Assembly (NCBI RefSeq): GCF_006345805.1
Contig: NW_021824382.1
Location: forward strand, 1-18,983
DNA from: Octopus sinensis
Taxonomy: Eukaryota
Direction of reading: 5' to 3'
Length of the DNA: 18,983 bases
This document shows, piece after piece, positions 3,756 through 18,302 of this stretch. The notes under the pieces are model-generated. The model worked only from the letters and a program-made list of their open reading frames with translations, ran no database searches and was not told where the DNA came from. Numbering within the stretch: the first letter of the stretch is position 1; each line of letters opens with the position of its first letter. The translations under genes were made by a program, and so were the position numbers.

Positions 3756-4847
3756 CCTAACTACATCTGTGTGTACGTGTGTATGTGATTAACCTTAGAC
3801 TTCATGAATTTCTATGAAATTTAATATAAGAATAACACAAGCTATATTAAGTCAACATAAAACTATATAATTTTATGGCCGTTTGTTTTTAGAATAATTG
3901 TCATTCGCTATCTTGAATCTTGATCTTATTTTATCATTCTCCTATATCGAACTGCTAGTTATCTTTTTGACGTAAACGTTCATAACACGACACATAAGCG
4001 CACAAGCAAGTATGCGACACGGCATATGTGTGCACGTGTTTGTGTGTGTGTGTGTATACATACATATTGATATATGCAAATATCTACGCATGCATCTATG
4101 TATCTATTATTGTATGCCTGTATTATATATATTATATGTATACATGTGTTATTCTATGTATATATGCATACGTATATATGGCTAGATGGATGCGTATTTG
4201 CCCGTTTGTATGTACGTATCCAGCACGGCCTTCTCTCAACCCCCTGGCATCGAAGTACGAGACATTCTAATAAAGAATTCTGGAGGCATCTTTTTCTGTC
4301 TAGACAGCTTCCAGTCTGAAAATATGGTCTTCATTGTTGATAATGTCCTGTACTATCGATTTATCTTCTGCTTCTAAATAAGATGGTCTGTACTGTGAGA
4401 TTTAGAACCTTCCAAAACAGTGTAGCAACTTCGTCTCCAGATCCCAGCCGACCAAGTAATGCGTGCATCTCGTAGTTGCTGAGATTAGAAGTGAACGCTT
4501 GCGCTTCGGAAGTTCTGGTCTAGTTGATTGTTTCTACACCTTGTGACATGTGTCCGTTGAGAAAATGACCTTTCATCCAGCGTGCAACTGTATTTTTTTG
4601 TAGCACCCGCTTCAAAACTGGAAGTAACATTTACAGTAACAACAACAATAGCACCGTGAACGAAAATAACAACAACAAAAATAATAAATCGAACGCCGCC
4701 GGTGTCTGCTCATCGTCAACAACATCAGAAAATGTAACTCCCTAAACATCAAAGTGAAAACTATAATGATCTCCAAGACGCGCCCCTCTCCGCTTGGAAC
4801 AACTCTGGCAGATAGTATATGCGAAGGAGGCGGTGAGAAGATTGAAG

Positions 4848-9917: not shown

Positions 9918-10100
9918 TGATAGATCGTTAGCTACTACACGCATTTTTTCTCTCCTGTTTTTTCTGTGATTCTTTCTGTCAAAGAGCGTAGGCTCGAAAC
10001 GTGAAAGGCTTTTTCTATTCCTGGGCGCTATACTAATACATTTGTTTGTTTGTACTCCGCCTGCCTTCGTTTTTTGTTTATTTTCGTAAACTTTCCCTTT
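9918..10100 (+). mobile_element. Family X copy 1: short (TA)n-flanked element with a minimal hammerhead-like motif
   Basis: Homologous to 10448-10625 and (inverted) 12216-12423. Motif tcttt-CTGTCAA-A-GAGC-gtag-GCTC-GAAA-C-GTG-aaagg at 9971-10008. Confidence 0.85.
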
Positions 10101-10413
10101 ATATATATATATATGCGTGGTTGTGTGCTATTATATTCGTATAGTTTTTATACGTATGTTTGCGGTTTGTATGTTTGTGTGTGTATCTATGTGTGAGAGA
10201 GTGCGCGCGGCGATGTTAGTATACGTACGCATGGGTGTGCCCGGTTATCGTTCTATATGTACGTGGGTATGCGTGTGTGCGTGTGTGTAACACACATGCG
10301 TGAGGTTTTGTAAATGACCAGAAAACAGAGATTGCACCTGTGCATGTGTGTATGTGTATGTACAGAAACATGCACATCGGAATGTAAAGGTGTTTATATG
10401 ACATTATTAACGC

Positions 10414-12015: not shown

Positions 12016-12215
12016 AGATATCTTTATATATACCTTTATACATGCAAAGATATACGCACCTATTATTATATAATGATTCATTTTCTAAATGCACTATGCA
12101 GTTTACAAAGTAGCTATACACATGTATAGACAAATATATATGCATGCGTTCATGCACATGCGCATAGTTTTTGTGTGTGTGTACACATATACCTGCATAC
12201 CTATATGTATATATC

Positions 12216-12423
12216 TAAAGGGAAAGTTTACGAAAATAAACAAAAGACGAAGGCAGGTGGAGTACAAACAAACAAATGTATTAGTATAGCGCTCAGGAAT
12301 AGAAACAGTCTTTTACGTTTCGAGCCTACGCTCTTCGACAGATACACAGAAAAAAACAAGGAGAGAAACAAGGAGAGAGAAAAAGGGAGAGAAAAATACG
12401 TGTAGGAGCTAACGATCTATCAT
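12216..12423 (-). mobile_element. Family X copy 3 (inverted)
   Basis: The - strand reads CTGTCGA-A-GAGC-gtag-GCTC-GAAA-C-GTA-aaaga (12341 to 12309); the ends coincide with those of copy 1. Confidence 0.87.
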
Positions 12424-14402: not shown

Positions 14403-14856
14403 ATAAAAGTAAAAACGACAAGCGAAACAATATAGCCAGTAAATGAAATTGTGCGCAGTGAATATATTAAGATGACGCTCGTTTAAGGGGAAAACAGATA
14501 ATGTGGCGTTTCGAAATGCTCTTAATCAGAAAGAGGAGGGAAAATCTCCGAAGAGAATGAATAAATAGTCAAGAAAAGCAAAAGAGTGGTTAAATGACTG
14601 AAGTACCCCACCCCACCATCACCCACCATATATATATATATTATATATGGTGGGGTGGGGTACTTCAGTCATTTAACCACACTTTTGCTTTTCTTGGACT
14701 ATTTTTTTCATTCTCTTCGGAGATTTTCTGCCTCCTCTTTCTGATTAAGAGCCATTCTCGAAACGCCACATTATCTGTTTTCCGCCTTAAACTGAGCGTC
14801 AATCTTAATATATTCACTGCGCACTTCCTTTCGGCTTTGTCGTCTTTTACTTTTAT
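14403..14856. repeat. Long inverted repeat: two head-to-head copies of a divergent family X-like element around a (TA)n spacer
   Basis: 14451-14619 is the reverse complement of 14647-14824 apart from small indels and a few substitutions; the outer ends 14403-14424 and 14835-14856 also pair. Confidence 0.93.
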
Positions 14857-14882
14857 TTTCGATTTACATATATATATATATT

Positions 14883-14942
<60 letters not shown>

Positions 14943-14984
14943 CATATTATATATATATATATAATATATAATATATATTGACTG

Positions 14985-15639
14985 TTTGACTGCTATTTCT
15001 AAATTCGGTATGTGGTAAGGCAATTCGTTGCTAACCCTTTATTGCTTAGTATTACTTAAATTTTCCTCGAATGAGCTTTTACATGCCGAAGACTACTTGG
15101 TGTAATTGATAATTATTCCAAATTAATTAATTTCACCCTTCATTATTACGGATAACCATATTTTATCTCAGTAGATGACCACAGCATCTTGTTTTGGCTA
15201 CACGCGGGTGGGAAGGGGCTGGTGACACAATCGTTTCATTCACAAATTGAATTCGGTGATACTAGTTGCGGATTCTAGCTCGCTCTGATACTGAGTTGAG
15301 TTGGTGCCTTCTAGTGTCTCAAAATCAATATATAATCATATTTATGATTATAGTATTCTACGCTGAAGAGAAAAGAAGTTTCGGGAAGATAGAATTATTT
15401 AATATTAAATATTAATTCTTATGCTTTCCTAAAAACTTGTTTTCGAAACGTACGTCCGTAGATAACTTAAAAAGTATGATAGATTGCCGTCAATTCATTC
15501 TCTCTTACCTGTTTGTGTCTGCCTCAAATTGCTGTTTTTACTGAATCTCCTTTTTAGTAGAAGAAATAGCTAAAACCTTTGACTGCTATTTTCTAATTCG
15601 GTTTTGTGGAAGGCAATTCGTTGCTAAACCCTTATTGCT
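14985..15639 (+). mobile_element. Retrozyme/PLE pseudo-LTR-like non-coding element, 593-bp period with 62-bp terminal direct repeat
   Basis: Direct repeats at 14985-15046 and 15578-15639 (tttgactgctattt...aaggcaattcgttgctaa...ttattgct). (TA)n on both sides, an internal hammerhead, and a homologous fragment at 18846-18983. Confidence 0.75.
15357..15462 (+). ncRNA. Type I hammerhead ribozyme, canonical core
   Basis: Stem I TCTACG (15357-62) pairs with CGTAGA (15457-62). CTGAAGA 15363-69; 75-nt stem II hairpin 15370-15444 closed by GAAAA/TTTTC; GAAA 15445-48; palindromic stem III CGTACG. GTC triplet with predicted cleavage after C15456. Confidence 0.88.
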
Positions 15640-15649
15640 AATATATATA

Positions 15650-15702
<53 letters not shown>

Positions 15703-18169: not shown

Positions 18170-18293
18170 ACATGTATGGCTACAACAATGCATGGATACA
18201 AACATGTATTTCTTATATATGCATATATATATATATATATATATATATGCATATATAAGAAATACATGTTTGTATCCATGCATTGTTTGTAGC

Positions 18294-18302
<9 letters not shown>
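18170..18302. repeat. Near-perfect 133-bp palindrome centred on (AT)n
   Basis: acatgtatggctacaacaatgcatggatacaaacatgtatttcttatatatgc-(AT)n-its reverse complement, with one 1-nt indel. Confidence 0.95.

Follow-up and report, generated by a model that had tools for sequence, protein, structure and literature searches.

Family A is a young, dispersed, non-coding tandem family that occupies hundreds of TA microsatellites in the genome of Octopus sinensis, and the insertion at positions 14985-15639 of the DNA analyzed here is one of its members. The window is the whole of this DNA (18,983 nt) and constitutes an entire small contig (NW_021824382.1) of the 2.72-Gb genome. The best full explanation of the family, to which we assign a probability of about 0.85, is that it is a non-LTR retrozyme inserted into (TA)n by a Neptune-type PLE, likely from a circular monomer RNA. 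Family A is very probably non-autonomous and PLE-mobilized, and a circular template is probably the main route. The family is previously undescribed but belongs to a known element type, the animal non-LTR retrozymes; the genomic evidence that it offers for PLE mobilization and a circular template is unusually direct.

The window insertion lies between two (TA)n tracts (Table 1). An earlier note on this DNA had described (TA)n on both sides and a 62-bp direct repeat at the ends, amounting to about 1.1 monomers, and both descriptions are accurate, with the addition of a 5-nt piece at the 5′ junction that likely arose by a template jump. The 5′ end of the insertion is unit position 1 and the 3′ end is unit position 62. 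The two repeat copies are spaced 593 nt apart and are 84% identical without gaps and 87% with gaps. The doubled unit has a longest stop-free frame of 49 aa and a longest ATG-led frame of 23 aa, in agreement with the earlier reading that it contains no ORF. With a GC content of 34%, the unit has the non-coding character and the GC content under 45-50% expected of a retrozyme. No tRNA was found in the window, and no promoter was identified.

Compared with the commonest letter per column, the window copy carries 13 substitutions and 9 deletions, while 33 other monomers have medians of 4 and 1. It is among the most deviant monomers, and is old or error-rich. Because the copy is so deviant and its contig is small, the 593 period and the 87% repeat identity may partly reflect sequencing error. 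The 593-bp unit first proposed therefore holds as the spacing of the window copy and not as the family length, since the modal monomer is 599-600 nt (33 full monomers). No other retrieved locus matches the flanks of the window copy at more than 80%, so no duplicate of this locus was found among those compared.

Table 1. Features of the window insertion and its flanks (positions in the window)
Feature	Positions	Strand	Basis
(TA)n target, 5′ flank	14868-14978	none	repeat detection
Extra 5-nt piece at 5′ junction; repeats letters of unit start	14980-14984	+	sequence
Insertion: 1.1 monomers of family A, single-armed	14985-15639	+	comparison with family
62-nt redundancy, first copy	14985-15046	+	self-comparison
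Conserved structured block, common to sister families	15004-15138	+	compensatory changes, 9 family representatives
Short 3′-end zone (unit 62-77, mode 68)	15046-15061	+	end mapping of copies
Long 3′-end zone (unit ~159-177, modes 170 and 177)	15143-15161	+	end mapping of copies
Type I hammerhead motif	15357-15462	+	motif scan and fold
Hairpin across monomer junction (helix 1 of conserved block)	15555-15595	+	fold
62-nt redundancy, second copy; terminates at short 3′-end zone	15578-15639	+	self-comparison
(TA)n target, 3′ flank	15641-15698	none	repeat detection

A relaxed scan of both strands of the whole window returns a single match, the type I hammerhead motif in the middle of the unit, where the earlier note had placed it. 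Helix I (15357-15362 with 15457-15462) comprises 6 bp, the core consists of CUGAAGA (15363-15369) and GAAA (15445-15448), and helix II is an arm of 75 nt (15370-15444). Helix III is short and palindromic, and cleavage is predicted at a GUC site after 15456. Helices I and II both appear in the predicted fold (z -2.4 and -2.7). Rfam at its E-value thresholds missed the hammerhead and returned only microsatellite-driven miRNA noise; the long helix II likely hides the motif. Of 131 full-length copies of family A, 114 retain an intact core and helix I. The helix II arm ranges from 64 to 76 nt across copies, and helix I covaries between families. The hammerhead sits outside the 62-nt terminal repeat. 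Each unit thus carries one hammerhead motif, a predicted ribozyme, as in animal non-LTR retrozymes.

Family A is abundant and uniform. A DNA search yielded at least 126 matches from 40 scored of 1707 candidates, with identities of 91-98% apart from self (most 92-97%), and many of these matches fall in head-to-tail runs with a period near 598. A 22-nt motif from the 3′ half of the hammerhead has 794 exact matches genome-wide and a 21-nt family motif (unit 30-50) has 2265, with none for the reversed control of either. The (TA)n targets are spread over many chromosomes. These counts, together with the dispersal of the family over many loci, dispose of two objections raised in advance, that the unit is single-copy and that its repeats are a local duplication. 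The 33 full monomers are 98.6% identical between loci and 99.4% within a locus, and the largest arrays contain 13 and 14 full monomers. Contigs from four of four sequencing runs, whose RNA status is guessed, cover 27-29 of 30 bins, and one contig bridges the monomer junction, as tandem DNA also would; among the runs listed as containing the family, none is recorded as RNA.

The ends of the copies carry the main evidence on how the family moves. They were surveyed at 41 loci from hammerhead matches and 36 loci from unit 30-50 matches, taken in chromosome order, and removal of 3 duplicates, segments shorter than 30 nt, and one hairpin self-match left 74 loci with 120 arms. All but two arms (118/120) end in one of two 3′ zones: 70 in the short zone (counted at unit 40-80, nearly all within the limits in Table 1) and 48 in the long zone (counted at 155-195). 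The 5′ ends are scattered across the whole unit. TA-rich DNA adjoins 114 of the 120 arms, mostly at an internal TA of the unit, and 38 arms are longer than one unit; beyond the first unit they enter a further monomer and in no case an ORF. The expectation of permuted or tandem, TA-flanked copies throughout the genome is borne out for the tandem arrangement and the flanks; the copies are not freely permuted, since their 3′ ends are fixed.

Two arms stand head-to-head at 45 of the 74 loci, meeting at offsets of -11 to +8 nt. A short end is combined with a long end in 42 of the 45 pairs (p 5e-12 versus random pairing). One of the other three pairs has two short ends and two have an odd end. The remaining 29 loci contain 30 arms, 25 of them short, and single arms mostly border (TA)n on their 5′ side. 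The stretch between the two zones, about 100-110 nt in family A, constitutes a tail. The family thus displays the inverted 5′-truncated partner, one-sided tail, and microsatellite target of PLE-type integration. Purified PAc (Poseidon) protein cuts both strands of AT-rich DNA in vitro and starts at two internal RNA sites, with the intervening stretch forming the genomic tail (PMC11167929). By analogy with this system, the short and long zones are likely the first and second internal start sites of reverse transcription.

In the window copy, a single short-zone arm stops after 1.1 units, which explains the 62-nt repeat without an LTR. The repeat is the product of a fixed internal 3′ start and a random 5′ stop, and there is no true LTR: the length of the terminal repeat tracks the length of the arm. 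The earlier proposal that the terminal redundancy derives from reverse transcription around a circular or tandem RNA is supported in the form of likely single-template, multi-turn copying, with the correction that the redundancy is not a fixed terminal feature.

The predicted cleavage site leaves no mark on the copies. There is no pile-up of 5′ ends there (3/120 at unit 470-479), so any cleavage in vivo would occur without a genomic trace. In a sample chosen independently of the ribozyme, 14 of 60 segments cross the site and none stops there on first pass. This excludes a cleaved linear monomer as the sole template and leaves circle and uncleaved multimer undistinguished. Separately, 7 of 60 segments have 5′ ends clustered at unit 543, at the base of a hairpin, and in 13 of 45 head-to-head pairs both arms stop no more than 12 nt from the same position. 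A hairpin pause or a fold-back route to the second arm is proposed for these two patterns.

Autonomous PLEs coexist with family A in the same genome. Their RT and GIY-YIG ORFs measure 775-883 aa (four of five proteins scanned) and contain the PLE linker motif CX4CxxC, which marks Neptune and Nematis elements (PMC8557442). One young family has RT and GIY-YIG ORFs of about 780 aa and ends in (TA)n; its copies reach 99% identity, and its 3′ end has 819 exact matches. It is classed as Neptune-type from its linker, a label that leaves Neptune and Nematis undivided. Its head-to-head insertions pair one plain end with one end bearing a tail of about 40 nt in eight of eight cases, comprising all 7 opposed pairs less than 5 kb apart among the first 100 matches listed and 1 found by BLAST. 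Because its short and tailed arms pair as they do in the genome's own PLE, family A carries a PLE footprint. The earlier view that this is a ribozyme-bearing element mobilized by a PLE gains support from the two 3′ zones, the short/long pairing, and the (TA)n targets.

At the loci sampled, family A is not the pseudo-LTR of a neighboring autonomous PLE, which would adjoin an RT-GIY-YIG ORF. No coding PLE body was found by tblastn with three PLE proteins in flanks of 0.7-3.5 kb at any of 41, 36, and 30 loci (sets that overlap in part), and the first two sets alone answer the objection that every copy might lie 3′ of a coding PLE. BLAST and profile scans of the PLE stretches sampled, which comprised 149 GIY-YIG candidates listed of 5029 and an additional 28 and 20 wider stretches, revealed no helper PLE that shares sequence with the unit. 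Unit profiles matched 5 of 114 PLE-centered stretches, and the three matches inspected (L046, L053, L263) are separate insertions across (TA)n. It is thus the shared target and footprint, rather than shared sequence, that point to a helper PLE.

Pieces of PLEs lie near sister copies in 2 of 20 stretches (L120, L126) and are separate elements: the L120 piece was judged so by eye, and the PLE in L126 and L131 ends in (TA)n without the conserved block. The young Neptune-type PLE carries its own, different pseudo-LTR of about 545 bp, closely related copies of which contain a hammerhead-like motif with a U3-A8 core (L037, L038, L047, L053).

Variant patterns within insertions bear on the template. 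Across 45 multi-copy loci, a variant seen in at least three loci is fixed within a locus in 73 instances and mixed in 7; in addition, 36 rare variants are fixed across a locus. In 26 two-armed loci, 39 of 40 occurrences of such shared variants extend to every copy on both arms, and 10 rare variants do the same. This uniformity across monomers and both arms indicates that each insertion derives from one sequence type. Uniform arrays can also be produced by uniform multimeric transcripts or by DNA-level tandem growth.

Rare variants fixed across an insertion are enriched in A>G changes on the hammerhead strand, which account for 24 of 77 in 111 loci, with 15 T>C (strand test p 0.024). Among single-copy variants, a comparison set that includes sequencing errors, A>G accounts for 14 of 172 (Fisher p 1e-5). 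Where at least three copies overlap, 17 A>G stand against 4 T>C among 35 variants (p 6e-4). ADAR prefers U or A on the 5′ side of the edited site, and 21 of the 24 A>G sites have one of these (p 0.03). Locus L187 contains seven A>G changes, three of them adjacent, repeated through its tandem monomers. The pattern is most simply read as several turns of copying around a single edited monomer RNA. Part of the data had already been seen when the A>G test was made, and 13 of the variants that it counts prompted it. At the level of loci, the excess over T>C is 10 to 5, or 7 to 2, and is partly driven by a few loci. Selection for G-U pairs could favor the same change.

Family A belongs to a larger superfamily. 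A degenerate unit-start motif has 14,365 exact matches and none in the control, corresponding to about 14,000 units. Sister monomers measure 541-562 nt, are 52-58% identical to family A, and carry their own type I hammerheads, in which helix II arms are 25-54 nt and helix I is altered yet paired; one sister family (L113) has a U3-A8 core. Among the arms inspected, sister families end at the same two offsets.

The RNA of the unit is predicted to be highly structured. The sense fold of the whole insertion beats 20 of 20 shuffles (z -5.1), and rough circular-fold z values (8 shuffles each) are -3.8 to -9.1 for the sense strand and -1.5 to -3.9 for the antisense strand. An alignment of nine sister representatives contains three conserved helices around the two 3′-end zones: a long-range helix (15004-15013 with 15081-15090), an inner hairpin, and a hairpin at about 15099-15138. 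In this three-helix block, 94.6% of cells pair, compared with 38-43% in slid controls. Compensatory changes affect 5 of 38 pairs, with 12 cells altered on both sides. In pair shuffles, which ignore relatedness, none of 500 reaches the covariation score and 32 of 500 reach the count of five pairs. Together with the sense fold and the covarying helix I, these changes speak for selection at the level of the RNA. The block is likely the binding site of the PLE protein.

These features suggest a mechanism for family A. Tandem copies would be transcribed, and their hammerheads would excise monomers that are then ligated into circles; cleavage probably occurs as dimers, because helix III is short and palindromic. 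A PLE protein would bind the three-helix block and cut both (TA)n strands, and cDNA would begin at two internal zones, one per arm. Synthesis would then travel back along the RNA past the ribozyme site for between 0.1 and more than 10 turns, after which the cDNA ends would be joined mutually, to give the head-to-head form, or to the target. The window copy would represent one arm, whose synthesis began in the short zone and ended after 1.1 turns. A bolder extension, which we put forward tentatively and at somewhat less than even odds, is that units throughout the superfamily give rise to RNA circles that undergo A-to-I editing before a PLE protein rolls them into (TA)n; this protein would recognize the three-helix fold rather than a shared sequence, with both cut strands primed at two different sites of one molecule.

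Several other explanations account for parts of these data. A PLE might instead copy linear, uncleaved multimers from existing arrays, which would make the hammerhead an inherited passenger and the circle unnecessary. Uncleaved RNA is the main substrate of PAc in vitro, where the hammerhead is dispensable (PMC11167929), family A arms cross the cleavage site freely, and uniform source arrays would yield uniform copies. We nevertheless consider this unlikely: rare variants, an A>G cluster among them, are repeated across all monomers and both arms within single insertions, which implies that at some step one molecule was multiplied, and the hammerhead core and helix I are kept in most copies and covary across families that are only 52-58% alike. 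Alternatively, the unit could be the pseudo-LTR of a rare, unsampled coding PLE, with the copies representing 5′-truncated products and pseudo-LTR tandems. All end signatures are PLE-like, the sampling of PLEs is partial, and retrozymes in Xenopus match PLE pseudo-LTRs (bioRxiv 10.64898/2026.07.22.740005), yet this origin is improbable given that monomers directly abut one another in arrays of up to 14, that arms longer than one unit enter another monomer and never an ORF, and that the young Neptune-type family has a different pseudo-LTR of its own.

Two further explanations dispense with a PLE. A minisatellite that expanded through unequal crossing-over and dispersed as DNA, with an incidental hammerhead, would account for the greater identity within loci than between them. 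Such a route, which may lengthen some arrays after insertion, has been considered for retrozyme arrays (bioRxiv 10.64898/2026.07.22.740005). As an account of dispersal it has been largely refuted by the end survey: the anatomy is strand-polar, with fixed 3′ zones and random 5′ ends, and short and long arms are strictly paired. The (TA)n targets on many chromosomes and the sense-strand A>G bias also stand against it, and we rate it very improbable. A LINE of CR1, RTE, or R4 type could in principle have mobilized the unit by twin priming. The window contains what we take to be LINE-like remnants, and 5′ inversions occur in L1. However, both arms of family A are sense 3′ ends from two different internal sites and lack poly(A) or a tail repeat, and their pattern agrees instead with the genome's own PLE in all eight pairs examined, and we rate LINE mobilization very improbable. 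Insertion by a Neptune-type PLE, likely from a circular monomer RNA, is thus the preferred reading.

Animal non-LTR retrozymes are tandem units of 170-400 nt with type I hammerheads and circular expression, for which PLEs have been proposed as helpers (Cervera and de la Pena 2020, PMC7229834). Like them, family A is non-coding, low in GC, and tandem, ranges from monomers to long multimers, carries in each unit a single type I hammerhead whose helix III is short and palindromic, has a highly self-paired RNA in its predicted fold, and shares its genome with PLEs. The family differs in its longer helix II arm (canonical helix II is 4 bp, and minimal PLE helix II is 7-8 bp; PMC4209133, which also describes the U3-A8 core variant). 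Its strict (TA)n targeting, two fixed 3′ zones, and short/long head-to-head pairs also set it apart from animal retrozymes as described in these sources, and, in contrast to retrozymes expressed as circRNA, it is known here from genomic copies, whose shared variants and A>G changes lend indirect support to monomer RNA. The earlier impression that the unit is longer than known animal retrozymes does not hold, since it exceeds the range above and falls within the 51-972 bp reported by Li, Clavereau and Pollet 2026 (bioRxiv 10.64898/2026.07.22.740005).

The same preprint ties retrozyme units to PLE pseudo-LTRs: in Xenopus, 24 of 57 families hit Repbase and 21 of 22 hits are PLEs. This kinship is presented for part of the families, and no pseudo-LTR match to family A was found in the 114 PLE-centered stretches sampled. 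Cleavage was observed in only one of nine predicted retrozyme dimers. By word search, the main text of the preprint samples no mollusc, and tails and inverted arms are unmentioned in it; ribozymes are likewise unmentioned in the available text of PMC13282606. In the open-access literature, with subscription papers and Repbase outside the scope of the search, nothing was found on family A, retrozyme tail signatures, or edited retrozyme fossils.

PLE features include inverted 5′-truncated copies, a one-sided tail, and a bias for (TA)n (PMC8557442). Family A resembles Neptune/Nematis PLEs (PMC8557442) and PAc (PMC11167929) in its (TA)n or AT-rich targets, 5′ truncation, partial tandems, inverted 5′-truncated partner, one-sided tail from two start sites, and position of the hammerhead upstream of those sites. 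Unlike them, it lacks an ORF, its entire repeating unit is non-coding, and its tail is about 100-110 nt instead of the published 30-40 bp; its unit also does not match the pseudo-LTR sequence of the PLE families sampled here. Plant LTR retrozymes (PMC4918200; features as given in PMC7229834) share with family A a size class of 600-800 nt, non-autonomy, a hammerhead, and a proposed circular intermediate. They differ in their type III hammerheads, true LTRs, PBS/PPT, 4-bp target duplications, and high GC. Rather than a type III hammerhead inside two LTRs, family A has a type I hammerhead outside a non-fixed 62-nt repeat, and it is therefore not a plant-type LTR retrozyme.

If the bolder extension above is true, the genome preserves direct fossils of animal retrozymes reverse-transcribed by a rolling-circle route, together with a minimal substrate ready for PLE integration in trans. 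How animal retrozymes move is still a proposal in PMC7229834 and bioRxiv 10.64898/2026.07.22.740005, where the roles of a PLE as helper and a circle as template are based on co-occurrence, shared hammerheads, and pseudo-LTR kinship. Family A itself shows the tail signature of PLEs, for which the genome's own Neptune-type PLE provides an internal control. The rule of one start site per arm, seen in 42 of 45 head-to-head pairs, bears on a PLE mechanism that is still unfinished, and the RNA fold and the two start zones are now named as targets for testing. Fossils of edited templates may offer a means of telling circle from multimer.

Other hammerheads occur elsewhere in the genome. Further unrelated type I families have helix II arms of 28-64 nt (L063, L066, L075, L142, L173, L223, L229, L231); long helix II arms seem frequent in this genome and would be missed by standard descriptors. 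Hammerhead-like motifs with a U3-A8 core are found in one sister clade (L113, L116, and L008 at 400-760). A more distant PLE, 27% identical to the Neptune-type protein, has a hammerhead downstream (L308, minus strand, near 3947). This hammerhead recurs twice, 469 bp apart, in L101 (621 and 1090), where the repeat is possibly a retrozyme derived from an L308-type pseudo-LTR. Different retrozyme families and PLEs are stacked back to back in shared (TA)n tracts in L016, L019, L046, L053, L120, and L263.

The remainder of the window contains additional repeats. Positions 14403-14856 form a large imperfect palindrome with a TA center, in which two head-to-head arms belong to an older dispersed family that is 71-79% identical to 39 other places and has a decayed minimal hammerhead-like motif. 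Relatives of this family end in microsatellites, and a PLE ORF is absent from all eight loci checked. A 169-nt repeat occurs as an inverted, TA-ended pair (9946-10114 and 12203-12371) that is 87% identical and 2.1 kb apart, and the PLE in L066 has a similar sequence on its upstream side. Positions 771-1172 contain a 133-aa open frame that presumably resembles the C-terminus of a CR1/L2-type LINE protein, and positions 18175-18297 form a near-perfect hairpin with a (TA)n center.
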